32,306 nucleotides of DNA from a virus (Duplodnaviria; Heunggongvirae; Uroviricota; Caudoviricetes), in the IMG/VR virus record IMGVR_UViG_2802429237_000004, positions 1-32,306 of that record; one strand, given 5' to 3'. The position numbers and the translations under genes are program-made. Below the pieces are notes generated by a model. It was not told the origin of the DNA. It made no database searches and was given only the letters and a program-made list of their open reading frames with translations. Of this stretch, positions 5,949 through 31,167 are shown one piece after another (position 1 is the stretch's first letter; each line of letters starts with the position of its first letter).

Positions 5949-7121
5949 TTACGCGCTGACCTGGCTGGAGAAATTCACCAGGTACTGATCGGTGATGCGC
6001 TGACGCAGCATCAGGTTTTCAAGTGGCGGCACTGGCGTGTAGTCGTAGTCGATGGTGAGCTTCCCGGCTTTCAGCGTGTCTTTATCGTTCACCGACTCAT
6101 CCAGCCAGCAATCACCACCAATGAGATAGCCCTGACTGACCAGGCTACGCATTTTGGCGCGGATACCTTCGATAATGTCGCGCGCCAGCGACGGGTTCAG
6201 CGGTTTATCCACCGCCCACATGTGCGCTTCTGCCATCGTGTCCGTCAGCACCTGCGCCGTGCGGGTGTAGTTTTCGAAAGCAAAAAGCGGATCATCGCTC
6301 AGACAGCGGGAACCCCAGAAGCGGAAACCATCCTTGCGCACAAGCGTGGTGACGTCATTCTGGTTCAGCAGACCTGCATCGGTTGCCGGGTCCTGCAGAT
6401 CCCAGAACACATCAGCAGAAATTCCGGTGACACCGTTCACGCCCACGTTGGACAGGCTTTTGTGCCACCCGGTCTGCTCATCAATTTTGGCACGCAGACC
6501 AAGCGCACGAGCGGTGGCATATGCCGTTGCTTCGGCATTCAGCACCGTGTCCCAGCCAGTAAAGTCAGGCCAGATCAGCATTCCTTCGCGCTGGCTGAAG
6601 TTTTCACGGTAAGTGATCGCCTCCTGTACCGTCTTGCAGCCATACGCTGACAGGTAGGCAAACCCACGCAGGCTTTGCGCCACACTCAGCAACTCAGTCG
6701 CAACGGCTTTGTTATCGTGACCTGGCACGCCGAGAATGCGCGGTTTAACGCCGAGCTGTGTCTGGGCAGATAACAGGGCTTTCATGCCTGTTTTTTTACC
6801 TTCAGCGGTCACTGCGCCGATGATATTAGTCGTGGTTTCTTCTTCCGTTTCCCCCTGCGGCACACGCACAACAACGGTCACGGGTTTTGCCTGGTCAGCG
6901 ATGGCATCCAGCGAACGGGCCAGCGTGCCGGACTCACCCGCTTTACCGCTGGCGGTCAGTACATCAGTGATCAGCACGGGTTTATTAAGAGGAAACATTT
7001 TTGCATCGGCATCATCGCCCGTGCAGACCATACCCACGATGGCGGTGCTCACCGTGGTAATGGATCGGGTGCCTTCGTTGACTTCAACAACGCGCACCCC
7101 GTGGTGGTAATCCTGAGCCAT
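5949..7121 (-). CDS. FI: Contractile tail sheath protein FI
   Basis: 390-aa ORF heading the FI-FII-E-T-U-D operon; preceded by a TGT-N12-ACA late-promoter element. Confidence 0.9.
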
Positions 7122-7196
7122 AAGGCAGTCTCTCCGGTTGTAGAGGGGGTCTGCCTATGTTCTGGTTGATACGCGCAGGGTGCACGCGATGGGGCT

Positions 7197-7214
7197 TGTA
7201 TGGAAAATGGCACA
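7197..7214. promoter_or_regulatory. Candidate Ogr-dependent late promoter element (TGT-N12-ACA) for the FI operon
   Basis: tgtatggaaaatggcaca read directly in the sequence, centred about 85 nt upstream of the FI start codon; P2-type late promoters carry this partial dyad near -55. Confidence 0.5.
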
Positions 7215-7225
7215 ACGGCAGGGTG

Positions 7226-7249
7226 AAAAAATCCCCGCAGACGCGGGGC
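7226..7249 (-). terminator. Rho-independent terminator after tail fiber assembly gene G
   Basis: GC stem tccccgc/gcgggg with a 4-nt loop; on the minus strand it is followed by a run of T, immediately after the G stop codon. Confidence 0.55.
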
Positions 7250-7255
7250 AGGAAT

Positions 7256-7858
7256 TTAAAATTCTGGTAGTTCGGGCCAGGCAATATCAGGGGCAGTGCT
7301 GATATCTGTTGCCGTCACTGCATCGATGTAGTCAAGAACAGCATTAAGTTTTACTGTTTCTGCATCAGTTAATTTTCTTCCGGCCCGTAATTTCAGTTGA
7401 ATCAAACTAACGGAAGCCATTGCAGTATCAATCAGTGACCGACGCTGTGTTTCTGCCGCTTCTACTGCGGCGCGATGTTGTATTTCAGTATCCGTCACCC
7501 ATTTCTCACCATCCCATTTATCATATGGCGTTAACGGGGCGATATTGGTTGTATTTTCAGGGTAATCACCCGGATTTGTGATTTCTTTGGCATCTCCCGT
7601 TTCGGTGCTATAGACAGTTTCACCGCGATGGTCTGGCACATATTCCCATGAGTTTAAATCCGCAGAGCGGCAGATGGCATAACCAGCTTTATATGTTCCT
7701 GGTGCATCTAAACAGGAACATGCCGGAATACCGACACCAACAGCAAGATATTCAGTTGATGTGGAAATATATTCTCGTGTTTCACCATTATAATTATAGA
7801 CAGTAATATCCCCCGCCTTCGTGGCAATAAACTCGTTATTTAATACAGCATTATCCAT
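7256..7858 (-). CDS. G: Tail fiber assembly chaperone
   Basis: 200-aa ORF immediately downstream of tail fiber gene H with 1-nt overlap; P2 gpG position and size. Confidence 0.8.
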   Translation of the reverse strand: MDNAVLNNEFIATKAGDITVYNYNGETREYISTSTEYLAVGVGIPACSCLDAPGTYKAGYAICRSADLNSWEYVPDHRGETVYSTETGDAKEITNPGDYPENTTNIAPLTPYDKWDGEKWVTDTEIQHRAAVEAAETQRRSLIDTAMASVSLIQLKLRAGRKLTDAETVKLNAVLDYIDAVTATDISTAPDIAWPELPEF

Positions 7859-9594
7859 TATGCAGCCCTCACTATATAGTTAAATGCAATATTTCGCGCA
7901 CGTGTTTCCGTTGATGTTCTGGCAACACGTGATGCATCAAAATAATAATTCGCCTGTTTATATGTACCACCTGTCGCAATTGATGCGAGATTTGGTGTCA
8001 ATGTTGAAGAGGTAAATACGCCGACAGTATTATTATTTGGCCCCGTGGTCATATCCAAAAAGCTCCCTGTAATATTTTGCAGCGTATCGCTCTGAGCACT
8101 CAATAACGCTCGCCCACTGTCCACGCCACGCCCGTCATCCCAGCCACGAATAAACTCGCCACGAAGATCGGGTACTTTTCCTGATGGATATGCTGTAGCA
8201 AGTCGGGGATATTTCACCTTATCAAAGGCAGCACCATTGCATTTCAACCAGCCTGTCGGTGGAGTGGAAGAAGGCCACGGAACAGGGATACCTACAGGTA
8301 ATGCTGAACCTTCTCCCAAACCAAGGTACGCGAGAAGACCAGCAACATCCTTTCCACTCAAATTAGTCAGCGTATTGTCCAGCGGTTGTTTACCTGACAG
8401 AGCATTCAACATTGTCGTGGCAAAGTTCGGGTCATTTCCCAGCGCCGCCGCCAGTTCGTTCAGTGTATCCAGTGCAGCAGGTGCAGAACCCACCATTGCC
8501 GCAATTGCCGATTTCACAAAAGCCGTGGTGGCAATCTGTGTATTGTTGACCGACTGTGCCGCTGTAGGTGCTGTTGGCGTTCCGGTGAGTGCCGGACTCG
8601 ACAGTGGCGCTTTCAGTGCCAGCGCATTGTTAATGGTGGTACTGAATTTCGGGTCATTATTAATGGCTGCGGCTATTTCTTTCAGCGTGTCCAGCGTGGC
8701 GGGCGCGCCATTAATCAGGGCTTTCAGTGCCGCCTGAACAAACGCCGTGGTGGCAATCTGTGTATTGTTGACCGACTGTGCCGCAGTCGGCGCTGTTGGC
8801 GTCCCGGTAAGTGCCGGACTTGACAGTGGCGCTTTTAGTTCCAGCGCATTGTTAATGGTGGTGCTGAATTTCGGGTCATTGTTTATGGCTGCGGCTATTT
8901 CTTTCAGCGTGTCCAGCGTGGCTGGCGCACCATTAATAAGGGCCTTCAGTGCCGCCTGAACAAACGCGGTGGTCGCAAGTTGCGTGGTATTATTCCCCGC
9001 CGCTGGCGTTGGTGCTTTGGGGGTTCCGGTAAACGTCGGGCTGGCTTTTGGCGCGTACTGTGAATGCGGGTCCAGTGCGGCAAGATGTTTTGCCATCAGA
9101 TCATCCACGTACACCTTCAGCTCCAGTGCCTTGTCATCCACATACTTGCGGGTTGCCAGCACAACGGCAGGGTCGATTTTCAGGGTGATATTGTCCGTGC
9201 TGCTGGTTATCAGCACCATGCGCACGGTCTGGGTGCGCCCGCTGCCTTCAGCCAGTTGCGGTTTATAGCTTTCCGGGCAGTTCCCCACGGCAATCAATGC
9301 CCCTGACTCATCAAACAGGCCCACTTCACGTATCCACCAACCGCCCTCGTTTTCAGGGATCACCTGTTCAGCAATAATCTGGCTGCTGTTCTGCGGGTCG
9401 ATATAGAGCATATTCAGCGCAGCCCGGCGTTTCTCATTTACCAGTGCAGTCTGCTTTGCGTCCGGCGTCGGCAATACTCCGCCGCCATCGCCCACCGCCA
9501 TATGGGTAATTTTTAGCGGCACACCGAGCGCGGCGGCGCTGGCAAGTTTCGCCGCGCCAATATCCGTCAGCAGGGTATAAAATTTTGTGCTCAT
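7858..9594 (-). CDS. H: Tail fiber protein H
   Basis: 578-aa ORF with an N-terminal P2 H-like region, internal 74-aa tandem repeats, and a C-terminal receptor-binding-type region; followed by G. Confidence 0.85.
   Translation of the reverse strand: MSTKFYTLLTDIGAAKLASAAALGVPLKITHMAVGDGGGVLPTPDAKQTALVNEKRRAALNMLYIDPQNSSQIIAEQVIPENEGGWWIREVGLFDESGALIAVGNCPESYKPQLAEGSGRTQTVRMVLITSSTDNITLKIDPAVVLATRKYVDDKALELKVYVDDLMAKHLAALDPHSQYAPKASPTFTGTPKAPTPAAGNNTTQLATTAFVQAALKALINGAPATLDTLKEIAAAINNDPKFSTTINNALELKAPLSSPALTGTPTAPTAAQSVNNTQIATTAFVQAALKALINGAPATLDTLKEIAAAINNDPKFSTTINNALALKAPLSSPALTGTPTAPTAAQSVNNTQIATTAFVKSAIAAMVGSAPAALDTLNELAAALGNDPNFATTMLNALSGKQPLDNTLTNLSGKDVAGLLAYLGLGEGSALPVGIPVPWPSSTPPTGWLKCNGAAFDKVKYPRLATAYPSGKVPDLRGEFIRGWDDGRGVDSGRALLSAQSDTLQNITGSFLDMTTGPNNNTVGVFTSSTLTPNLASIATGGTYKQANYYFDASRVARTSTETRARNIAFNYIVRAA
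8522..8965. repeat. Near-identical 222-bp tandem repeat (two full copies) inside tail fiber gene H, with diverged copies on either side
   Basis: The string gccgtggtggcaatctgtgtattgttgaccgactgtgccgc recurs with a 222-nt period (starts near 8522 and 8744), with a diverged copy near 8966; it encodes a repeated 74-aa unit (PALTGTPTAPTAAQSVNNTQIATTAFVQAALKALINGAPATLDTLKEIAAAINNDPKFSTTINNAL). Confidence 0.85.
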
Positions 9595-11097: not shown

Positions 11098-11443
11098 TCT
11101 CTGCTCCTGTTGATACAGAAAGGGAAACAGGCACACCGTTATTACGCCGCCCGGTCAGCTCCACCACCATTGAACCGTCAAAATTGCTGTTGATGGTGAT
11201 GGAATCCAGCGTAAGCCGTGGCTCCCAGCGACTCAGTGCCACATACACTGCCGACATGACCTGCAGGCGTAACGCCGGATTTTGTGGCTGATCTATTAAA
11301 GCCGACAGCAGGGAACCATATTCCCGGCGGGCAATGCGGCTACCCTGCGGTGTCAGCAGAATGTCCCGCACCGACTGGCGCAGATGGTCAATATCAGTAA
11401 TGGCTTTACCGCTGGTATTGTTCATCCCGCTATAAAGCGTCAT
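11084..11443 (-). CDS. W: Baseplate wedge protein W (gp25-like)
   Basis: 119-aa ORF between V and J, 4-nt overlap with V; P2 gpW size and position. Confidence 0.85.
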   Translation of the reverse strand: MTLYSGMNNTSGKAITDIDHLRQSVRDILLTPQGSRIARREYGSLLSALIDQPQNPALRLQVMSAVYVALSRWEPRLTLDSITINSNFDGSMVVELTGRRNNGVPVSLSVSTGAENGSD

Positions 11444-12018
11444 ACCGGGCCTCCGGTTGTATCGCCGCCTTTCAGGACGCCAGTATGCTGATGCGCATCA
11501 ACCACGATCCCGTTAGAACTCATCGCACCGCCGCCCTGGGTAACGCCGCCATTGATCACTACTTCGCTATTAATACGCGTGCGCTCAGCCTCCAGCACAA
11601 ACTCACTGGTTTTCAGGGTGATATTGTCGGCAGCCTCAATGACCATGGATTTGATTCCCCTGACATACCAGCGCCCGGTAGCGGGTTCGTATTCAAACCG
11701 GCCGCCGTCAGGATGTTCTGTCACGCAGGCATCCGCCGACGTCGACGGCGGTGCAAACTGATTCGAATAGATGGCGGGCAGCGCAAAGGCGGTTTCCAGA
11801 TTTCCGCCCAGACTCAGCAGCACCACCTGCTCACCTTCCGATGGTCGCCACCATGTGCGGGCATTCCCGGCACGCAGCGTCAGCCAGCTGATCCAGTTAG
11901 TTTCAAGCTCGCCCGTTTTCACCCGGCAAAGCCAGTTCTCCCGGTCCACTTCGGTGACTACCCCAGTGCGGATCAGGTTGGTGATAAGACGCATGATTTC
12001 GGTTAATTGTACGTTCAT
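11440..12018 (-). CDS. V: Baseplate spike/assembly protein V
   Basis: 192-aa ORF; its N-terminus resembles P2 gpV as I recall it (IRTG..TE...R.KTGE...W..WLT.RAG..RTWW.PS.GEQV); first gene of the V-W-J-I-H-G block. Confidence 0.85.
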   Translation of the reverse strand: MNVQLTEIMRLITNLIRTGVVTEVDRENWLCRVKTGELETNWISWLTLRAGNARTWWRPSEGEQVVLLSLGGNLETAFALPAIYSNQFAPPSTSADACVTEHPDGGRFEYEPATGRWYVRGIKSMVIEAADNITLKTSEFVLEAERTRINSEVVINGGVTQGGGAMSSNGIVVDAHQHTGVLKGGDTTGGPV

Positions 12019-12110: not shown

Positions 12111-12872
12111 ATGAAAGATAATTTAAATCTTCTTATAAAAAAATTAATAGGAAAGGCCTTTCCTGAATTTAGCAATAAGATAACATGGACTTTACTCACT
12201 GCAGGGATCGGTATTCTTGCACTACCTGCACCCACATATTTATTATTCGTAAACCTTATAATTGATTTTTACAACAAAACAACTAATTCAGAAATCAGCC
12301 TTCTTAAGATTGATAGCATTACACCAAGTAGTGGGGTTGCTTTAACTTTAATTCTATCCGGACTAGTCTTCCACCTATTAATAAAAGCCCCCCAGATATA
12401 CCAAGAAATTCTAAAAAAGAATAACAAAAAAGAAACACAGGAAAGAAAAAGAGTAGCAGACGTTAAACTTTATGAGGCATTTATTGAGATTCTACCTACA
12501 ACCTCGTTATCAATTGAGTTCTTAAAAGACCATGATTTTGAAAACTCCTATCATGATAATAATACAAAAGATTTTAGTAAACTTGAATACGGGTGGGGTC
12601 ATGCAGATCAACATTTTCATGACAATGAAATTGAAGATAAAGCCGTTCATCTTTATAGTGAAATAATAAAGTTCGATTATTTTCTCGCTTATAAATCGCA
12701 CAATATCAATGACTATATGTTTAGCATGCTTACTGACAGAGATCGAGCTATGGTGATGGAATTATTACCTCAAACAAAGGAAAATATAAAAATAGCCAAT
12801 GAGTGGAGTTCTACAATTCATCAGCTTTACTGTGACTTTATCTCCACATGTAGGAATAACTTAGCCATATAA
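12111..12872 (+). CDS. AT-rich cargo gene: predicted 2-TM membrane protein with unknown C-terminal domain
   Basis: 253-aa ORF with AAGGA Shine-Dalgarno 6 nt before the ATG; two hydrophobic helices (ITWTLLTAGIGILALPAPTYLLFVNLII and SGVALTLILSGLVFHLLI) then a roughly 160-aa soluble domain; visibly AT-rich against GC-rich flanking tail genes; located between S and V, where P2 carries orf30. Confidence 0.6.
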   Translation: MKDNLNLLIKKLIGKAFPEFSNKITWTLLTAGIGILALPAPTYLLFVNLIIDFYNKTTNSEISLLKIDSITPSSGVALTLILSGLVFHLLIKAPQIYQEILKKNNKKETQERKRVADVKLYEAFIEILPTTSLSIEFLKDHDFENSYHDNNTKDFSKLEYGWGHADQHFHDNEIEDKAVHLYSEIIKFDYFLAYKSHNINDYMFSMLTDRDRAMVMELLPQTKENIKIANEWSSTIHQLYCDFISTCRNNLAI

Positions 12873-12890: not shown

Positions 12891-13334
12891 TTAAGACAAG
12901 TAACGAAAAAAAATATCACGAGTTAGCATTTCCGCTTCGTCGTTAACACCCAGAAAGCGACGCTCTGCATAACGGACCTCAGGTCCTTTGCGACTGACGC
13001 GATCACGCAGGCCGTAATGGTGAACGCGGGCAATGCGCTGCACCTTACCTTCAAACTGCACGCTGGCAGAATCGGCGCTGGCGGCAGTTTTCAGGTATTT
13101 GGTGGTGCGCAGCTTTGTAAACATCTGACGTTTGATGCGCCCCTTTTTGCTGCGTGCTGTTACCCTGCGCGGTTCATAGCTGCTGCCGTCAGGGTTGCGC
13201 TGCATCCTGATATTCTGCTGCTGTGTCCGGCGCAGTTCCTGCGCCAGCTGGCGCATCATGCGGCTTCTTGCGGCTGGCTCCAGATTCGCCAGCAAGGCAC
13301 TCAGCCAGTCGTCCACCTTCTGCAGTTCAGCCAC
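12891..13334 (-). CDS. S: Tail completion protein S
   Basis: 147-aa ORF downstream of R with 8-nt overlap; P2 gpS size and position. Confidence 0.8.
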   Translation of the reverse strand: MAELQKVDDWLSALLANLEPAARSRMMRQLAQELRRTQQQNIRMQRNPDGSSYEPRRVTARSKKGRIKRQMFTKLRTTKYLKTAASADSASVQFEGKVQRIARVHHYGLRDRVSRKGPEVRYAERRFLGVNDEAEMLTRDIFFRYLS

Positions 13335-18461: not shown

Positions 18462-20228
18462 ATGAACACCACACTGACACCCGCAGATCTCGATCCCCGT
18501 CGGCAGGCCATGCTGCTGTACTTTCAGGGATACCGCGTCGCCCGCATTGCTGAAATGCTGGGCGAGAAAGTTGCAACCGTTCACAGCTGGAAAAAACGCG
18601 ACAAGTGGGGTGACTATGGGCCGCTGGATCAGATGCAGCTCACCACCGCCGCACGCTACTGCCAGCTCATTATGAAGGAGCACAAAGAAGGGAAAGATTT
18701 CAAAGAGATTGACCTGCTGGCGCGCCAGTCTGAGCGCCACGCGCGGATCGGCAAGTTTAACAATGGCGGCAACGAAGCTGACTTAAACCCTAACGTCGCC
18801 AACCGCAACAAAGGCCCGCGCCGTCAGCCGGAAAAGAATGTCTTCACCGATGAACAGATTGAGAAGCTGGAAGAAATCTTCCATTCCTCCATGTTCAACT
18901 ACCAGCGCCACTGGTGGGAAGCCGGAAAAACCAACCGCATCCGCAACCTGCTGAAGTCACGCCAGATCGGCGCGACCTTTTACTTTGCCCGTGAAGCCCT
19001 GATTGACGCCCTGCTTACCGGACGTAACCAGATTTTCCTTTCCGCCAGCAAGGCACAGGCCCACGTCTTTAAGCAGTACATCATCGACTTCGCCAAAGAA
19101 GTGGATGTGGAACTGAAAGGCGATCCGATGGTGCTTCCCAACGGGGCCACGCTTTACTTCCTCGGCACCAATGCCCGCACGGCCCAGAGTTACCACGGCA
19201 ACCTGTATCTGGATGAATATTTCTGGATACCGAAATTCCAGGAGCTGCGCAAAGTGGCTTCCGGTATGGCTATTCACAAAAAATGGCGACAGACCTATTT
19301 TTCCACGCCATCCAGTCTGACACACAGTGCTTATCCGTTCTGGTCCGGTGCGCTGTTCAACCGTGGGCGCAACAAAGCCGATAAGGTGGACATCGACCTG
19401 TCCCACAGCAATCTGGCCCCCGGCCTGCTGTGCGCAGACGGGCAATACCGCCAGATAGTCACCGTGGAAGATGCGGTGCGCGGCGGCTGCAACCTGTTCG
19501 ACCTTGACCAGTTGCGCATGGAGTACAGCCCGGACGAATACCAGAACCTGCTGATGTGCGAGTTCGTGGACGATCTCGCGTCCGTGTTCCCGCTCAGCGA
19601 GCTGCAGGCGTGCATGGTGGACAGCTGGGAAGTCTGGACCGACTTTCATGCACTGGCACTGCGCCCGTTTGGCTGGCGCGAAGTGTGGATCGGTTATGAC
19701 CCGGCGAAAGGTACGCAGAACGGCGACAGTGCCGGATGCGTGGTGGTGGCACCGCCAGCCGTGCCGGGCGGCAAGTTCCGCATTCTTGAGCGTCACCAGT
19801 GGCGCGGGATGGACTTTCGCGCCCAGGCTGACGCCATCAAAAAACTGACCGAACAGTACAACGTGACCTATATCGGCATCGACTCAACCGGCGTTGGTCA
19901 CGGGGTTTACGAGAACGTGAAAGCGTTTTTTCCTGCCGTCCGGGAGTTTGTCTACAACCCCAACGTTAAAAACGCCCTGGTACTCAAGGCCTACGACATT
20001 ATCAGCCACCGCCGTCTGGAGTTTGACGCCGGACACACCGACATAGCGCAGTCATTTATGGCAATCCGTCGCGCCACCACCGCCAGTGGCAACCGCCCGA
20101 CCTATGAAGCCAGCCGCAGCGAAGAAGCCAGCCACGCCGATCTGGCCTGGGCAACCATGCACGCACTGTTTAACGAACCGCTGCAGGGCGAGTCCGCCAA
20201 TACCAGCAATATTGTGGAGATTTTTTGA
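18462..20228 (+). CDS. P: Terminase large (ATPase) subunit P
   Basis: 588-aa ORF divergent from O and followed by portal Q with overlapping stop/start (TGATG); P2 gpP size and position. Confidence 0.9.
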   Translation: MNTTLTPADLDPRRQAMLLYFQGYRVARIAEMLGEKVATVHSWKKRDKWGDYGPLDQMQLTTAARYCQLIMKEHKEGKDFKEIDLLARQSERHARIGKFNNGGNEADLNPNVANRNKGPRRQPEKNVFTDEQIEKLEEIFHSSMFNYQRHWWEAGKTNRIRNLLKSRQIGATFYFAREALIDALLTGRNQIFLSASKAQAHVFKQYIIDFAKEVDVELKGDPMVLPNGATLYFLGTNARTAQSYHGNLYLDEYFWIPKFQELRKVASGMAIHKKWRQTYFSTPSSLTHSAYPFWSGALFNRGRNKADKVDIDLSHSNLAPGLLCADGQYRQIVTVEDAVRGGCNLFDLDQLRMEYSPDEYQNLLMCEFVDDLASVFPLSELQACMVDSWEVWTDFHALALRPFGWREVWIGYDPAKGTQNGDSAGCVVVAPPAVPGGKFRILERHQWRGMDFRAQADAIKKLTEQYNVTYIGIDSTGVGHGVYENVKAFFPAVREFVYNPNVKNALVLKAYDIISHRRLEFDAGHTDIAQSFMAIRRATTASGNRPTYEASRSEEASHADLAWATMHALFNEPLQGESANTSNIVEIF

Positions 20229-21265
20229 TGGGAAAGAGTAAAAAGAACCGCGCTGCGGCGACGAAACAGATCCAGCTTAAAAGCCAGACTACAGCCGAAG
20301 CATTCAGCTTCGGCGATCCCGTTCCTGTTCTGGACCGCCGAGAACTGCTGGACTATGTGGAATGCGTACAGATGGACCGTTGGTATGAGCCGCCCGTCAG
20401 CTTTGACGGACTGGCGCGCACCTTCCGCGCTGCCGTGCATCACAGTTCCCCGATTGCAGTAAAGTGCAACATTCTGACCAGTACCTATATCCCTCATCCG
20501 CTGCTCAGCCAGCAGGCTTTTTCGCGTTTTGTGCAGGACTATCTGGTATTTGGTAACGCCTACCTGGAGAAACGCACGAACCGCTTCGGTGAAGTTATCG
20601 CCCTTGAGCCTGCGCTGGCAAAATACACCCGACGCGGATTAGACCTGGATACCTACTGGTTTGTGCAATACGGCATGACTACGCAGCCGTATCAGTTCAC
20701 GAAAGGCAGCATTTTTCATCTGATGGAACCGGACATCAACCAGGAGATCTACGGCCTGCCCGGTTATCTTTCTGCCATTCCGTCAGCCCTGCTCAACGAG
20801 TCCGCCACGCTGTTCCGCCGGAAGTATTACATTAACGGTAGTCATGCAGGCTTCATCATGTACATGACCGATGCCGCGCAGAACCAGGAAGACGTGAACA
20901 ACCTCCGCAACGCAATGAAAAGCGCCAAAGGACCGGGTAACTTCCGCAACCTGTTTATGTACTCGCCTAACGGGAAAAAGGACGGACTTCAGATTATCCC
21001 GTTGTCAGAAGTGGCGGCGAAGGATGAGTTTCTAAACATCAAGAACGTGAGCCGGGATGACATGATGGCGGCGCATCGTGTGCCACCGCAAATGATGGGG
21101 ATTATGCCTAATAATGTTGGGGGATTTGGGGATGTAGAGAAAGCTAGTAATGTATTTGTGCGAAATGAATTACTACCATTGCAAAAGCGAATCACAGAAT
21201 TTAATGAGTGGATAGGAAACAATGTAGTTCAATTTGAGCCTTATACTTTCGAGATTAGAGAATAA
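20228..21265 (+). CDS. Q: Portal protein Q
   Basis: ORF-track start at 20225 is a TTG; the ATG at 20228 (MGKSKKNR) overlaps the P stop; about 345 aa, P2 gpQ size and position; the last 150 nt or so are conspicuously AT-rich. Confidence 0.9.
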   Translation: MGKSKKNRAAATKQIQLKSQTTAEAFSFGDPVPVLDRRELLDYVECVQMDRWYEPPVSFDGLARTFRAAVHHSSPIAVKCNILTSTYIPHPLLSQQAFSRFVQDYLVFGNAYLEKRTNRFGEVIALEPALAKYTRRGLDLDTYWFVQYGMTTQPYQFTKGSIFHLMEPDINQEIYGLPGYLSAIPSALLNESATLFRRKYYINGSHAGFIMYMTDAAQNQEDVNNLRNAMKSAKGPGNFRNLFMYSPNGKKDGLQIIPLSEVAAKDEFLNIKNVSRDDMMAAHRVPPQMMGIMPNNVGGFGDVEKASNVFVRNELLPLQKRITEFNEWIGNNVVQFEPYTFEIRE

Positions 21266-21289: not shown

Positions 21290-21308
21290 GGCCGATTTAA
21301 TATCGGCC
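21290..21308. terminator. Bidirectional hairpin between convergent Q and the DUF4062-like cargo gene
   Basis: ggccgat-ttaat-atcggcc perfect 7-bp stem in the 49-nt gap between the two stop codons, with T-rich flanks on both sides. Confidence 0.5.
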
Positions 21309-21314
21309 TTTAAA

Positions 21315-22346
21315 CTATCTTTTTATTGCTCGTAGAGTAGTCATTAAATTCTCCCCATAAGGGGTTAAGGTCCAATATGTACCCTTGTCTTTTACACTTC
21401 TATTTCTTTCACTTTGGACCATAAGCCCTAGAGCTCGGAATTGTACTTTGATTGTCTGGACATCAGAACTATCCATACGAATAAACTTTATATGCATATT
21501 TTTAAAATCATCATCCGACCTCAACCCTGCCTCAACAATTTCATAGATGGAAGCGTTGATCAACGTTTTTAATCTATCATCGGAAATTTCATCAATCATA
21601 TAGGGAGAAATATAGGAAAATAATGAATTCCAACTTATCTGAGAGGTCCACTCATACTCTGAACCATCAGATGTCCACTCTGTAGGAGAAGCATGGAAGC
21701 TACATTTAAAAGTAAATAAATCGTCTCCTTGTGCAAGATCCTCAGTCCCTTTCGGTGCAGTTGTGGTATTCTTACTTAATTGATTTTCAAGTTCCTCAAT
21801 AGTCCTCTTCAACCCAAGAATTTCTTTTGCTGAACTCTCACTAGTAACTAAATCTCCACGAACCCATCCTACAGCAGGATGATCTTTAATAAGCCTAATC
21901 AAACTTCTACTGACTTGGCTTCCTAAGTCCGCAGGAGTTTCCCAGAATCGGCAAAGTTTCTTTTTAACAAGCTCTTCAAATGCTTCTAGCTTTTCTTTTC
22001 CTTGAGGAGATGGCTCACATCGCTGGGATGGTAAAAGACCTTTATTTTTGTGCAAAAAACCAATTACTGGCTTTCCTGATTCAACAGCGTAACGATACTC
22101 CATCTCAGTATAACTTATCCCATCAGGCCCTAAGGAACCGTAACGCCCCGCAAGGATTACAATGTAATAATCACTATCATCAATTATTTTCTTTATTAAG
22201 CTCCATTGATCACTATTAGTAGCAGGAAACAACTCCATACCAGCAGGTATACAATCCAGCTCTAAAAGAGCCTGCATGACCTCTTGACGTTCAGTTTCCA
22301 GGTCTGAGTATGTTGAACTAACAAAAACTTGATACCGCTTGTCCAA
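21315..22346 (-). CDS. AT-rich cargo gene: protein with DUF4062-like N-terminal module and unknown C-terminal domain (candidate defence/abortive-infection effector)
   Basis: 343-aa ORF; N-terminus YQVFVSSTYSDLETERQEVMQALLELDCIPAGMELFPA...DYYIVILAGRYGS matches my recollection of the DUF4062 signature; in-frame start is TTG preceded by GAGGGA at good spacing (no upstream in-frame ATG; the next ATG would cut the conserved motif); flanked by terminator hairpins. Confidence 0.6.
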   Translation of the reverse strand: MDKRYQVFVSSTYSDLETERQEVMQALLELDCIPAGMELFPATNSDQWSLIKKIIDDSDYYIVILAGRYGSLGPDGISYTEMEYRYAVESGKPVIGFLHKNKGLLPSQRCEPSPQGKEKLEAFEELVKKKLCRFWETPADLGSQVSRSLIRLIKDHPAVGWVRGDLVTSESSAKEILGLKRTIEELENQLSKNTTTAPKGTEDLAQGDDLFTFKCSFHASPTEWTSDGSEYEWTSQISWNSLFSYISPYMIDEISDDRLKTLINASIYEIVEAGLRSDDDFKNMHIKFIRMDSSDVQTIKVQFRALGLMVQSERNRSVKDKGTYWTLTPYGENLMTTLRAIKR

Positions 22347-22414
22347 ACCGCATCCCTCATGATTATTACTTTAAACAATGTAATATTTTTTACTCCATAT
22401 TTAATTTGCGCGCA

Positions 22415-22433
22415 ATCGTATCCCCGCCACGCC
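22415..22433 (-). other. cos-like cohesive-end site
   Basis: Minus-strand GGCGTGGCGGGGATACGAT; the first 13 nt match the 19-nt cohesive end of P2/186 as I recall it (GGCG[A/T]GGCGGGGAAAGCA[C/T]); lies between the SOS operon terminator and the cargo gene. Confidence 0.45.
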
Positions 22434-22478: not shown

Positions 22479-22502
22479 AAAAGCCCGCCAGTTCTGGCGG
22501 GC
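22479..22502 (-). terminator. Rho-independent terminator ending the SOS (tum/dinI-like) operon
   Basis: gcccgcc-agttct-ggcgggc stem-loop followed on the minus strand by TTTT, about 135 nt downstream of the dinI-like stop. Confidence 0.55.
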
Positions 22503-22637
22503 CTTAGCAAAAACGATCCTCAAACGATCATGCGATCTCATGCGGCATAGACATGCACTACAGAGTTAACGCCTCGCAAGGGCTCGTTGTTCAACCTTGC
22601 TGACGCCAGAAGCAAGTTCAGACGCCAGCAACGTTTC

Positions 22638-22871
22638 TTAATGCAGCCAGCTGTCGTCTTCCCACACCTTCTGCATAATTTTCATCACTTGTTTTCTTTC
22701 TTCGTCCAGTTGCAGTCCGGTTAGTTCCACACCGTTAGAGCTACCTTTGCGAATGCGAATTACCGTTTTGGGATACAGGGGGCGCAGATTGCGGTAAAGC
22801 TCGGATTCAAGGGCGTCCAGGGTAGACTGGCTAATCTTCTGCTCTTTATCGATCATTATTTCAATGCGCAT
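22638..22871 (-). CDS. DinI-family protein (second gene of SOS operon)
   Basis: Start set at the internal MRIEIMIDKEQ, preceded by GAGGTG Shine-Dalgarno; 77 aa; N-terminus and C-terminal ...VWEDDSWLH resemble E. coli DinI and the C-terminal half of 186 Tum as I recall them. Confidence 0.6.
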   Translation of the reverse strand: MRIEIMIDKEQKISQSTLDALESELYRNLRPLYPKTVIRIRKGSSNGVELTGLQLDEERKQVMKIMQKVWEDDSWLH

Positions 22872-22881
22872 AAAAGTCACC

Positions 22882-23070
22882 TCAGCTGATGACATCCATT
22901 GAGCGGTTGTATTCGTGGGTTCTGATTTTTGCCATGAGTTCATCAGTCAATTCAGAAACCCACTGCAGAGCCAGCCCCTTCTCTTCATCACTACACTCAC
23001 TAGCCGCTACAAGCTTAAGAAAAAAATCAATGCGCTGGAGCTTCAAAGACTCCAAAAAATAGTCCTGCAT
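22882..23070 (-). CDS. Small SOS-operon protein (possibly the N-terminal part of a Tum-like antirepressor)
   Basis: Start set at the internal MQDYFLESL, which has a perfect AGGAGGAAAG Shine-Dalgarno directly upstream and lies 30-60 nt downstream of LexA boxes; the ORF-track start at 23172 would place the LexA boxes inside the coding sequence. Confidence 0.5.
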   Translation of the reverse strand: MQDYFLESLKLQRIDFFLKLVAASECSDEEKGLALQWVSELTDELMAKIRTHEYNRSMDVIS

Positions 23071-23098
23071 CTTTCCTCCTATGACACCACACGCAACA

Positions 23099-23129
23099 CT
23101 GTATGTATAACCACTGTTTATATTTACAG
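23099..23129. promoter_or_regulatory. Tandem LexA (SOS) boxes at the promoter of the tum/dinI-like operon
   Basis: Perfect CTG-N10-CAG with AT-rich core (ctgtttatatttacag, about 23114-23129) abutting an imperfect copy (ctgtatgtataaccac, about 23099-23114); LexA consensus is CTGTATATATATACAG. Confidence 0.6.
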
Positions 23130-23223
23130 CATATAATAATCTTACTGATGTAAAACGTTTTTTTACGTTCATCAGCCTGATATGCCTGGTATTATTAAGA
23201 GCACGAATTGTTAACCCGCGTAA

Positions 23224-25638
23224 TTAATACAGGTTCCGCCACTGATCATCTTCCTGCAAACGCTGGTTCCGATAGAAGATACGCAGGCCTGCTCCTGACG
23301 GAATACTGCCTCCGCGAAGGAGTAAATCGACCTCTTTCTCGCTGCCATCAAATCCTCTGGACTTCAGCTCATACACGAGCTGCAGTCGCTGATGGTCTGT
23401 AATTCGCTGTTTGTAGTCTTTACGCCGTTTCGGTTTCACCAGGCGTAACCTTGCTGCCAGTTCCCGGCGCTCTTTTTTGCTCATACTGTGCAGGTAATCG
23501 TGCAACTCCTTGTCATCCATGCTGGTAATGTCCGTTCTGGGGTCCCCATCAGCTGATTTATCTTTCTCCTGTTGGTTCAAATTTTCAGCAAGGGGACAGT
23601 TATTGCCACGAGTCCAAGGGGCGCAAGCGCCCTGGTCGGCTGCCGCCTCCTGAACGTCAACGGCCTTACGAACCATTTTCCACTTCACCGCATGAGTGCA
23701 GATCTTGCCCTCTGCAATGGGTGACCAGATGCCATAAATACGAATACCGTGATCGCCATATGCGGTCGGTTCTTCGTTGATTTCATAAGCAGTTCTGATG
23801 AGGTGATATTTGCGGGGAACCAGTACGCCGCCCTGCTTCATGATGTAGGTGGCAAAACAACCAACATCAGCAGCAGCCAGGATTGCATCAAGGCGCGGGT
23901 TATCCAGTACCGGCGCACCTGCTTTTTTGTCCCCCTGTTGCCTTGCCGCCTGACCAGCCAGCAATCGCAGTTCACGGTAAGCCTGACGCCCCGGAATGCC
24001 AAAGAAGCGGAATTGCTGAACACGATGCAGAGACGCCCAGGCATTAACGTATTCAGCGTTATCACGCAGGGATTTACCCGTTTCCTTGCTGATCTCGCCA
24101 GCCAGACCACGCCCGTCAATGTTCTTACTGATGTATTTCGCGATGTAGCTTGTTGGCGTACCTTTGCGCGGGTTTATCAGCTCAGACTTAAAGCGTGGTC
24201 CCGTGTTATTACCCAGCTCCTCGCGGTCTTCACGAATGGCAAACTTACGCAACAAAGCAGTAATGGTGCGGCGATCTTTTTTGCGCATAAAACACAACAG
24301 GTGCCAGTGAACTGTACCGTCATGATGCGGCTCAGCCACCCGCACGCCATACCAGCGCAATCCGGCTTTGTGCATCGCCTTACGAAATGCAGCAAACATG
24401 CCGACCAGATAATCACTGCTTTGTCTTACCGTCGTATTTGTCCAGGTCGGGTTGGGCCTGCCGTTATTTAGCGTGGAATGGAAACGTGACGGACAGGTGA
24501 TGGTGTAGAAAACGGCGCAGTCACCGCGCATTTCCGCGATAAGCTCCAGACCTTTAACACAGGCCATCATCTCATTGCGGCGATGCGCAGGGTTGCTGCT
24601 GCTGGCGTTTACCACATCCTCCATGTCCAGCATGTCGCCGTCTTCGTTCACCAGTTCATGAGAACGGAAAAACTCCAGCGACTTACGGCGCTGCTCACGT
24701 TTATGCATCACGGCTTCATAGCTGACATAGGGAGATGCTTTTTTGCTGACCAGGCAAACAGCACGCAACTGCTCTTCCCGCCATTCGCAACGCATCTTCC
24801 ATAATTTCCGGTACCACCAATCGGCGCACAACATACGCGCCAGCGAACCCGGAATGAGTTCATAGGGCACGGGTTTACGGCGGTTTCTTTTCCGGCGGAG
24901 TTGCTCAAACGCAGGCGGTATGACATCCAGTCGCAGGGTTTCTGCTGCCACCTTTTCCCATGTCTTGCGGATTTCTTCTGGCTTAACGTCATCGGTGGCA
25001 TACAAATCGCCACAAGCTGCATCAAGGCACATGCTCATATGCGCAGCAACAAGGGTGGACAGGCGTTTCACCTGATCCTGACTCATTTCAGGCAGGATCA
25101 GCAGGCCGTCCAGCCCTTCATGGCTTGCCATAAAGCGAAAAGAAGTGGATAGCTGACTGTCGCGTACATGCTCCAGCCGTTCCAGACATGGCTTAATCGT
25201 CTCACGCAAATAGCGGGAATAAGCCTTTGGCCTGCCAAGGCTGCTGAAGTATTCAATACGTTGCATCAGCGGCCTGCTGATATGGGAAGGCTGGGCGTTA
25301 ACGTCTGCCAGAATGACCATGTCCGGGTTAAAACGCTGCTGCTCATGCGCCAACTTTGCCCGGCTAATGAGCTTATCCTGCTCCATTTCGCGCTGGACAG
25401 GATCACGGGATTCATTAAAGAAATAACGCTCCCAAACCTGATCACTCAGTGCCTCGCGGCGCAGTTGTTCCTGCTCGTTATCGGCAGCGTACAGAGTGAT
25501 CAGGTTTGAAAGCGCAGAAACCGGCGCAACTTCCGCCGGGTCCAGATAAGGGTTAATAGCCTTTTTCGGGCTGTTCCATGAGAATGCTGCGGCGGCCTCG
25601 TTAAAGCCGCTGCAGTTGTTCATATCAGCATGGCTCAT
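23224..25638 (-). CDS. A: Rolling-circle replication initiator A
   Basis: 804-aa ORF with an HUH-type motif ([10 protein letters not shown]) and a Y-x-x-K-Y pair (SYIAKYISK); last gene of the early operon, start overlapping the Dam stop (ATGA). Confidence 0.8.
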
Positions 25639-29228: not shown

Positions 29229-30167
29229 ATGTCAACTCAAAAAAACACATTTCGCCATGTTAGCGAGAGTCTAAAAACTTCAATAATGCAAAACCGTGGG
29301 GGACAGAAAGTAATTGAGCGTATACTTGTTGCGTATGGTTTTACTTCGCGGCAAGCATTTTGCAATCATCTGGGTATCTCACAAAGCACGATGGCCAACA
29401 GGTATGCTCGTGACACATTTCCTGCTGACTGGGTGATAATTTGCAGTATAGAGACCGGCGCATCTATCGACTGGTTGGCATCGGGAATCAGCTGTGAATC
29501 ATCCTCAGTTTTATTAAATGATGAACGTTTAGCCCATACCAAATCTGATGACCTGGATAGAACTAATTCAATAGCCCAAAAGTTCCCAATCGAGACCAGC
29601 ATAAATCCTAATAAAGGAGGGAAGGCGGCAATTGATCGCTTAGTCGCAGCCTACGGCTTTAGCACCCGACAAGCCCTAGCAAACCATTTGCAGGTTTCAA
29701 AAAGCACTGTAGCAAACAGGTACTTACGAGACACGTTTCCTAGCGACTGGATCATTCAATGCGCTCTTGAAACAGGAACTTCATTACTCTGGCTCACAAA
29801 CGGCAATGGCCCCAAATTTATCGATAATTCCAGCTCTGTAGCCCAACTTAAACACCAAACAATCATTGACGGTAAATTACATGATGAAGGCTACTTAGCA
29901 TTTGACAAGACGCTTATACCTTCCGGATTGAAAAAACCTATTGGAGTTACCGCAGAAGGAAAAACCTTTATTGCAGATACAGAATATGATGATGTTTCAG
30001 ATGGTAGTTGGTTGATTGAGATTGAAGGTAAAGTAAGTTTAAGAAAATTAACAAGAATTCCAGTTGGAAAAGTAAAAATCACATCAGATACAACTGATTT
30101 TGTTTGTAAGCTTGAAGACATTACAACCATCGCAAAATGTTGTTGCGTTTTTTCAAAGGAAATTTAA
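29229..30167 (+). CDS. cI: CI-like immunity repressor with two tandem 186 CI-type N-terminal HTH domains
   Basis: 312-aa ORF; two consecutive segments (ERILVAYGFTSRQAFCNHLGISQSTMANRYARDTFPADWVIICSIETGASIDWLASG and DRLVAAYGFSTRQALANHLQVSKSTVANRYLRDTFPSDWIIQCALETGTSLLWLTNG) each resemble the 186 CI N-terminal DNA-binding domain; AT-rich C-terminal third; start codon choice uncertain (weak Shine-Dalgarno). Confidence 0.7.
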   Translation: MSTQKNTFRHVSESLKTSIMQNRGGQKVIERILVAYGFTSRQAFCNHLGISQSTMANRYARDTFPADWVIICSIETGASIDWLASGISCESSSVLLNDERLAHTKSDDLDRTNSIAQKFPIETSINPNKGGKAAIDRLVAAYGFSTRQALANHLQVSKSTVANRYLRDTFPSDWIIQCALETGTSLLWLTNGNGPKFIDNSSSVAQLKHQTIIDGKLHDEGYLAFDKTLIPSGLKKPIGVTAEGKTFIADTEYDDVSDGSWLIEIEGKVSLRKLTRIPVGKVKITSDTTDFVCKLEDITTIAKCCCVFSKEI

Positions 30168-30177
30168 AGGAACATAC

Positions 30178-31167
30178 ATGAATTCTGAAAATAAAAAAAA
30201 TGAAAACAACGATTATGTTGAAAAAGTTAATTGCGAATGGAAAGATCTTTATAATATTTTAAATGAAAATCTGCATAAATTTAATGAAAATGAACGCGCC
30301 TACTTAGTCGACTTATTAAAAAAAGGTGAACTTGATAAATTCAGAGAATACTACTGGAAATTAGCCCAGCAAGAAAAAATGAACTACAGCGATAAAGCTG
30401 GAGATATTTTTATTAATGAAAACAATAAGATAGATGAATTAATAAAAGAACAAAAACATCTTCGAGAGATAATGCGATCATATACCAAACGTTTATTGGA
30501 GGCTGAAGAGTCCAAAGCTACGTTACATCTTCGGAATGAGAATTTAGAAAAACTAAATTCTGAAAAAGAAGCAATTATTGAGCAAGCCGTATCTAGAATA
30601 AAGCAACTTGAAGCATCTAACAGCGAATTACAAAGCCGAGTACAACAAGAAAGGATTGATGAGAAAATACCAGGATATGTCGATAGCGTTAAAAGTGAAC
30701 TAAGTTCAGATGACTTATATTTCATTAAAATGTCGCAAGTATGGGCTTTTACTGGCTGCATTTTCGGGCTACTTGCTGTATGTGCATCATTTTATACACT
30801 CTACGCCACAATTGACTTCAACAATGTTAAAGGCTTTGAGCTATTTTATTTTTTCACACGTGGTTTAATTGGTATTTCCATTCTTTCTTGGCTAGCATAT
30901 ATTTGCCTTGGCAACTCTAAAAAATATACCCATGAATCAATTTTGAGAAAAGATAGAAGACATGCACTAATGTTTGGGCAAGTATTCCTGCAAATTTATG
31001 GTTCCACGTCAACAAAAGAAGATGCTGTGTTAGTCTTTAAAGACTGGAATATGTCTGGTAACTCTGCATTTTCTGACAAAACAGAACTCCCTCCGGGAAT
31101 CCAATCTTTATGGGATTCAACCAAAGAAAAACTAAAGCCAAGTACCGCTGAAAAAGCACAGGAGTGA
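30178..31167 (+). CDS. AT-rich cargo gene: coiled-coil protein with two C-terminal TM helices
   Basis: Start set at the ATG with AAGGA Shine-Dalgarno (MNSENKKNENN...); about 330 aa; a roughly 200-aa Glu/Lys/Leu/Asn-rich heptad region, then two hydrophobic helices (VWAFTGCIFGLLAVCASFYTLYATI, LFYFFTRGLIGISILSWLAYICLG) and a 65-aa tail; very AT-rich; followed by its own terminator. Confidence 0.6.
   Translation: MNSENKKNENNDYVEKVNCEWKDLYNILNENLHKFNENERAYLVDLLKKGELDKFREYYWKLAQQEKMNYSDKAGDIFINENNKIDELIKEQKHLREIMRSYTKRLLEAEESKATLHLRNENLEKLNSEKEAIIEQAVSRIKQLEASNSELQSRVQQERIDEKIPGYVDSVKSELSSDDLYFIKMSQVWAFTGCIFGLLAVCASFYTLYATIDFNNVKGFELFYFFTRGLIGISILSWLAYICLGNSKKYTHESILRKDRRHALMFGQVFLQIYGSTSTKEDAVLVFKDWNMSGNSAFSDKTELPPGIQSLWDSTKEKLKPSTAEKAQE

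Follow-up and report, generated by a model that had tools for sequence, protein, structure and literature searches.

A P2/186-like prophage with a probable Swarozyc-family abortive-infection gene in its cos-proximal defence hotspot

Introduction

DUF4062 has recently been described as a TIR-like NADase, an enzyme acting on nicotinamide adenine dinucleotide (NAD+), in a bioRxiv preprint of May 2026 that features KpSwz of Klebsiella pneumoniae, the founding member of the Swarozyc family (10.64898/2026.05.01.722283). KpSwz and four homologues with similar auxiliary (AUX) domains at the C-terminus were assayed against the BASEL phages, and protection was found to depend on KpSwz residue E97 and on the AUX domain; infection lowered NAD+ and cultures collapsed at high multiplicity, as in abortive infection, and escaper phages bore mutations in the portal (10.64898/2026.05.01.722283). 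Purified Bas14 portal turned on the hydrolysis of NAD+ to adenosine diphosphate ribose (ADP-ribose) and nicotinamide, and electron cryomicroscopy (cryo-EM) placed 13 AUX domains around the dodecameric portal, contact being made by the hairpin anchor W238/Y239 together with an alpha-loop-beta module carried on a winged-helix core (10.64898/2026.05.01.722283). The wider DUF4062 defence family, named Evangelion, is the subject of a June 2026 preprint, which sets Swarozyc apart as a separate DUF4062 lineage (10.64898/2026.06.25.731849). In P2-like phages the interval between gpA and gpQ is a known defence hotspot close to cos (Rousset et al., 2022; PMC9122126), and here we describe a 343-amino-acid (aa) DUF4062 protein encoded in this interval of a P2/186-like prophage (IMG/VR record IMGVR_UViG_2802429237_000004; the entire analysed stretch of 32,306 nucleotides is referred to as the window). 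The gene is probably a single-protein abortive-infection system of the Swarozyc family, carried by the prophage as hotspot cargo.

Domain architecture and homology to KpSwz

The gene and its parts are located as follows.

21315..22346, minus strand: Swarozyc-family gene, 343 aa, TTG start and TAG stop (open reading frame (ORF) list, exact-sequence look-up, KpSwz alignment and phrog_15411)
21867..22346, minus strand: N-terminal DUF4062 TIR-like domain, predicted NADase, residues 1-160
22098..22100, minus strand: GAG codon of E83, predicted to be the catalytic glutamate and equivalent by alignment to KpSwz E97
21732..21866, minus strand: linker with long helix, residues 161-205, predicted to form the stalk that joins enzyme to sensor (helix 170-195 in the AlphaFold2 (AF2) model)
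21318..21731, minus strand: predicted C-terminal AUX sensor domain, residues 206-343, with beta-hairpin, alpha-loop-beta module and winged-helix core

Exact-sequence look-up identifies the protein as WP_105289438.1 (UPI000CF76CAA), and phrog_15411 matches its whole length (E=1.5e-114). A preliminary description of the locus had proposed an N-terminal DUF4062 module and a C-terminal domain resembling nothing recognizable. The former was borne out by a Pfam search, in which DUF4062 (PF13271) covered residues 6-87 over the full profile length with E=6.9e-29; the canonical TIR profiles (PF01582/PF13676) gave no match, and Pfam at E<=1 yielded only DUF4062 and a spurious repeat. The latter has to be abandoned, as the C-terminal 147 residues alone match the portal-binding winged-helix AUX domain of KpSwz with E=9e-16 and 28% identity. 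In a sequence search of a 2026 copy of PDB, with the KpSwz entries included, residues 1-342 aligned with residues 2-323 of the KpSwz DUF4062 chain (PDB 10wc/11cq/11cv) with E=2.8e-69. When this chain was rebuilt from the alignment, a numbering offset of +13 recovered all the residues named in the preprint (V15, D16, R18, D71, W176, W238 and Y239), and chain position 97, aligned with E83 of the window protein, proved to be alanine because the deposited KpSwz is the E97A mutant.

Among 67 aligned full-length homologues E83 is invariant, and the window protein possesses every family-invariant residue, E83 included. The pair E83-Y84 is present, as is Q47-W48, with S49 replacing the glutamate of the Q/W/E motif. 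The protein carries the marks of the Evangelion/DUF4062 superfamily in the broad sense (DUF4062 core, E-Y region, Q/W/E motif and a diversified AUX) together with those of Swarozyc proper (DUF4062 TIR-like domain, a glutamate equivalent to E97, AUX with helical stalk, and a stand-alone gene in a hotspot).

The AF2 model, with a predicted local distance difference test (pLDDT) score of 83 overall and 85-94 in the AUX region, consists of a TIR-like alpha/beta N-domain, a long helix at 170-195 corresponding to the helical stalk described for KpSwz, and a winged-helix C-terminus. Strands 210-220 and 229-238 form a beta-hairpin whose tip loop holds W224, aligned with KpSwz W238, and residues 256-291 form a helix-loop-strand (helix 256-276, strand 285-291). 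Foldseek matched the N-domain to TIR folds (SPARTA, RPS4/RRS1, RPP1, Cat1, TIR-STING, TIR-SAVED, SARM1) and also to nucleoside 2-deoxyribosyltransferase-like (NDT-like) enzymes, and the C-domain to the winged helices of PadR, RosR, Sso10a and MukF; its PDB library ends on 2026-04-08, before the KpSwz entries, and gave generic folds only.

Variation between alleles

Over the full length, the window allele is 71% identical to WP_001513676.1, the common Escherichia coli allele of the P2 hotspot (a DUF4062 protein of Enterobacteriaceae), which Rousset et al. (2022; PMC9122126) catalogue as DUF4062 cluster 67 in their supplement. Identity between these sister alleles reaches 85% in the TIR-like core and 84% in the winged-helix core, against much lower values in two segments of the AUX domain.

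21633..21731, minus strand: hypervariable beta-hairpin, residues 206-238, tip W224, 45% identity to WP_001513676.1
21471..21581, minus strand: hypervariable helix-loop-strand, residues 256-292, 24% identity to WP_001513676.1

Across the 67 homologues, mean entropy is 2.18 bits in the hairpin and 2.45 in the helix-loop-strand, compared with 0.63 in the TIR-like core and 0.6-0.7 in both cores. The hairpin aligns directly with the hairpin anchor of KpSwz, and residues 256-292 would correspond to the alpha-loop-beta portal-recognition module, to judge from the AF2 model and the description in the preprint. Such a pattern is consistent with a conserved scaffold whose recognition surfaces diversify. 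Since the two recognition modules are the most variable in the family, the window allele probably has a target range of its own, and it is a range specific to this allele that the variation suggests.

Genomic slot and distribution

The window represents a P2/186-like prophage with a 186-type CI repressor, CII, an integrase, a Dam-type methylase, gene A and a DinI-like gene, along with portal, terminase, capsid and tail genes. The surroundings of the defence gene comprise the following features.

20228..21265, plus strand: P2-type portal gene Q, one flank of the hotspot, convergent with the defence gene (Pfam Phage_portal, E=2e-17)
21290..21308, unstranded: GC-rich hairpin of 7 bp shared by the convergent Q and defence genes, likely a bidirectional terminator
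22353..22358, minus strand: Shine-Dalgarno sequence GAGGGA, 6 nt 5' of the TTG, kept in the Klebsiella and E. coli copies of the window allele
22415..22433, minus strand: cos-like core GGCGTGGCGGGGATACGAT, a single match, invariant across alleles
22480..22505, minus strand: strong hairpin with a T-run, situated to the side of cos that faces gene A (-25.1 kcal/mol, z=-4.2)
23224..25638, minus strand: replication endonuclease gene A, bounding the gpA-gpQ hotspot on its other side (annotated at matching loci as replication endonuclease / Phage_GPA)

Q is annotated as phage portal protein in related prophages. The cos-like core has no match in shuffled sequence, and it differs at three positions from what we take to be the cos sequence of phage 186. 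The preliminary description had read this region as a TTG-initiated, AT-rich ORF with a GAGGGA Shine-Dalgarno sequence, lying between Q and a cos-like site in a variable cargo slot and bracketed by terminator hairpins. These points hold, and both hairpins are real. The guanine-cytosine (GC) content of the gene is 38.7%, against 50.6% in the portal gene, 57.2% in the terminase gene, 53.0% in gene A and 51.3% in the whole window. The last ~140 bp of the portal gene (window 21128-21265, plus strand) likewise stand at 32% GC against 50-58% over its remainder, so the AT-rich tract starts within the 3' end of Q and not at its stop codon. Two ATG triplets occur near the TTG and neither is in frame; the start codon position is the same in other alleles, and the TTG is credible because the sister E. 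coli allele has ATG at this codon and the expressed KpSwz constructs start at the matching point.

As for the hairpins, the one at 21290-21308 has folding energies of -13.3 and -13.2 kcal/mol, with z=-3.5 for the minus and z=-3.9 for the plus strand, and both it and the one at 22480-22505 are strong, but a strict terminator scan calls neither, owing to their short T-runs. The hairpin at 22480-22505 lies on the far side of cos and thus ends the DinI-side transcript; it insulates the defence gene and is not part of it. Similarity between alleles stops about 8 nt beyond the cos core, which sets the cassette at roughly 21302-22407, carrying its own 60-nt leader. Rfam gave no match in the window.

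A 2.5-kb probe spanning the Q-to-A region found matches in 1289 of 5426 complete E. coli genomes. The cargo of the best-matching records is interchangeable, being a TIR-domain protein with two hypothetical proteins, a DprA and phosphoribosyltransferase pair, a SEFIR-domain protein, or DUF2971 with DUF4062. A full-length relative (70% nucleotide identity) is present in only 7 of the ~1289 probe-matching genomes, and the window's own allele in none of the complete E. coli genomes searched. The exact protein occurs on 11 contigs, with a P2-type portal gene adjoining in all six contexts shown; on the A side beyond cos the cargo of these six contexts varies, being absent in some, an ASCH protein in others, or else a DndB-like protein paired with one of 181 aa. 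In Klebsiella a 97%-identical allele fills the same slot, also beside a P2-type portal gene, and in Escherichia and Klebsiella alike the ORF is conserved and intact. WP_001513676.1, found on 609 contigs against 5 for the exact sequence of the window, is far commoner. Remoter full-length homologues, at 57-63% identity, reside on other (non-P2) mobile elements of Pseudomonas and Burkholderia, and in the phage database no P2-like genome carries the gene, the only hits being two distant Acinetobacter phage records at 24.6% identity.

Four samples of another lineage with the exact allele (L003, L004, L007 and L008) share the same K200* nonsense codon in the adjacent P2 portal gene, which in L003 lies at about 7082-8119 on the minus strand; these four carry the DndB-like and 181-aa proteins on the A side of cos. 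The window, like L005 and L006, combines the same allele with a portal gene that is intact. The nonsense codon may be ordinary prophage decay, and it might be a trace of conflict with the self portal.

Between cos and gene A (window 22638-23172, minus strand) lie the DinI-like gene and a small hypothetical gene (phrog_698), which are conserved in the related P2-like prophages examined and are therefore backbone and not variable cargo; their ORFs are listed at 101 and 96 aa, against 77- and 62-aa genes annotated elsewhere. Two further AT-rich ORFs were noted in the window. One of 253 aa (12111-12872, plus strand) lies in a 32-35% GC island on the strand opposite to its neighbours, the P2-like tail/baseplate genes V (11440-12018, minus strand) and S (12891-13334, minus strand); neither Pfam, PADLOC, PHROG nor PDB yields a sequence match to it, and it is an orphan cargo gene, at what is presumably the position of P2 orf30. 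The other, of 355 aa (30100-31167, plus strand, 28-35% GC), sits between the CI repressor (29229-30167) and the integrase (31254 onward) and matches phrog_2628, of unknown function, with E=2.6e-88 and no PADLOC hit; its site is a possible second cargo slot of the prophage.

A 170-aa ORF on a Duffyella gerundensis plasmid (NZ_CP073264.1, locus L009, 4001-4513) consists of stalk and AUX only and stands next to the defence gene Dsr1. Its reading as an AUX sensor fused to a different effector was considered and rejected, the ORF being a Swarozyc remnant truncated by an insertion sequence (IS).

Proposed function and alternative explanations

Membership of the Swarozyc family, in sequence as in architecture, is evident here, as are the catalytic residue, the hotspot context and the pattern of variability. 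The mode of action can be drawn by analogy with KpSwz. In the uninfected cell the protein would be held as autoinhibited head-to-head oligomers, until a foreign phage assembles its dodecameric portal. The AUX domains would then bind around the portal stem through the beta-hairpin, with W224 at its tip, together with the alpha-loop-beta module, whereupon NAD+ hydrolysis would be switched on and infection would abort, protecting the lysogen population and the prophage along with it. Under such a scheme the window allele must tolerate the prophage's own portal.

Several points weigh against this reading. Identity to KpSwz is ~40% overall and 27% in AUX, the AUX domain is ~20 residues longer than that of KpSwz, and Y239 of the hairpin anchor is replaced by T225. 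WP_105289438.1 is not among the five accessions assayed in the Swarozyc preprint, and those five homologues were unequal in protection (10.64898/2026.05.01.722283). Escaper mutations of Eva01 point to recombination/replication functions and not to the portal (10.64898/2026.06.25.731849), so DUF4062 proteins are not all alike in their triggers. The two key papers are preprints. In the promoter scan no sigma-70-like promoter was found in the ~60 nt from cos to the start codon, where manual inspection gave weak AT-rich candidates only. PADLOC-DB 2023 returned no hit and holds no model for the gene, although this database predates the family and the missing hit is thus not evidence against defence.

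Of the alternatives, the one that survives best is a Swarozyc-type NADase whose modules have been retargeted to a non-portal trigger, such as another virion or replication protein or a component of a P4-type satellite. It would account for the divergence of the recognition modules from the sister allele against the 85% identity in the cores, it has a precedent in Eva01, also a DUF4062 protein with AUX and apparently triggered through recombination/replication functions, and the PDB sequence search detected no similarity between the window's P2-type portal and any solved chain. However, homology between the AUX scaffold and the AUX by which KpSwz binds the portal is clear, the tryptophan at the hairpin tip is retained, and variation in the contact loops is just what is expected when diverse portals are tracked; we consider a non-portal trigger unlikely.

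It is less likely still that the gene mainly serves the prophage itself, as an addiction or kill-switch device or in competition between P2-like phages and P4 satellites over the cos/portal machinery, broad protection being incidental. The position directly beside cos and the phage's own portal gene would suit such a role, as would the small share of P2-like prophages that carry the gene (the 7 of ~1289 above) and the portal nonsense codon in one lineage with the exact allele. Yet homologues expressed alone protect against unrelated lytic BASEL phages (10.64898/2026.05.01.722283), relatives occur in the non-P2 elements of Pseudomonas and Burkholderia, and in L005, L006 and the window itself the same allele coexists with a portal gene that is intact. 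The rarity of the allele, the lack of a recognizable promoter and the TTG start might suggest a remnant that is inactive or decaying and now serves no function, but this is hardly credible. The ORF is full-length, has all family-invariant residues including E83 and a good Shine-Dalgarno sequence, and recurs in identical or 97%-identical form in several genomes of Escherichia and Klebsiella; a truly decayed copy looks different, as in the IS-truncated Duffyella gene.

Returning to the portal-triggered abortive-infection system, a more specific proposal concerns the rare allele of the window. Because its two recognition modules have been re-made, its trigger range may be unlike that of the assayed Swarozyc proteins, and because it is encoded beside the prophage's own portal gene, it would have either to ignore P2-type portals or to be shut off when the prophage is induced. 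We put this forward tentatively, as a conceivable but somewhat doubtful refinement. If it were true, natural allele pairs occupying a single fixed slot of the genome would become a ready system for mapping the discrimination of self and non-self portals.

The preliminary description had presented the gene as the best candidate for an undescribed single-gene defence or abortive-infection factor. A defence role is the best reading, but the homology to KpSwz and the preprints of 2026 have overtaken the claim that it is undescribed; judged by its sequence, the gene adds a new and rare member to the Swarozyc family, at a hotspot already known, and is not an undescribed system. As a discovery this is modest, since family, mechanism and structure have been published as 2026 preprints. 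What is gained is that an unknown cargo gene turns into a specific prediction, a portal-triggered, NAD+-depleting abortive-infection protein with E83 as catalytic residue, for which the NAD-depletion assay suggested earlier is apt. Furthermore, Swarozyc is placed in the P2 hotspot next to cos, where its gene converges on that of the phage's own portal, which raises the question of self-tolerance, and divergent alleles in one slot, differing mainly at residues 206-238 and 256-292, offer natural material for the study of target specificity.

Comparison with known systems

KpSwz is resembled from end to end, the window protein having the DUF4062 TIR-like domain with its catalytic glutamate, the helical stalk and an AUX domain with tryptophan at the hairpin tip, all encoded by a single gene in a defence locus. 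Unlike KpSwz, the window gene is located on a P2-like prophage next to cos, a setting that the Swarozyc preprint leaves undiscussed, the word 'prophage' never occurring in it (10.64898/2026.05.01.722283). With WP_001513676.1 it shares slot, orientation and start codon position, the sister allele differing in its 5' leader and in starting with ATG. This sister allele may be the strongly protective 'EcDUF4062 (Enterobacteriaceae/E. coli)' of the Swarozyc preprint (UPI0002A39D72).

Eva01 likewise has a DUF4062 core with the catalytic E-Y motif, and it is a single-gene abortive defence tied to NAD+ depletion and found on mobile elements (10.64898/2026.06.25.731849). The Staphylococcus plasmid proteins of this type match the window protein at residues 4-163 only, at ~38% identity, with an unrelated AUX, and the short AUX tail that follows their DUF4062 core is absent from the window protein. 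This partial match agrees with the placing of Swarozyc in a lineage apart (10.64898/2026.06.25.731849). The trigger of Eva01 is apparently linked to replication/recombination.

Thoeris ThsB, TIR-STING, SPARTA, Cat1 and SARM1 have the same fold and the same catalytic-glutamate logic. In canonical TIR NADases the destruction of NAD+ is driven by oligomerization. The window protein belongs to a separate sequence family (DUF4062 and not Pfam TIR), and KpSwz differs from canonical TIR proteins in its dimer interface (AB) and in its product, which is ADP-ribose and not a signalling nucleotide (10.64898/2026.05.01.722283).

Finally, the protein is unrelated to those of P2 old and tin and other gpA-gpQ cargo, and, relative to cos, the window cargo lies toward Q and the extra cargo of loci L002 and L003 toward A. 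What the window gene would have in common with all of these is the hotspot itself and the prophage-encoded exclusion of competing phages (PMC9122126).
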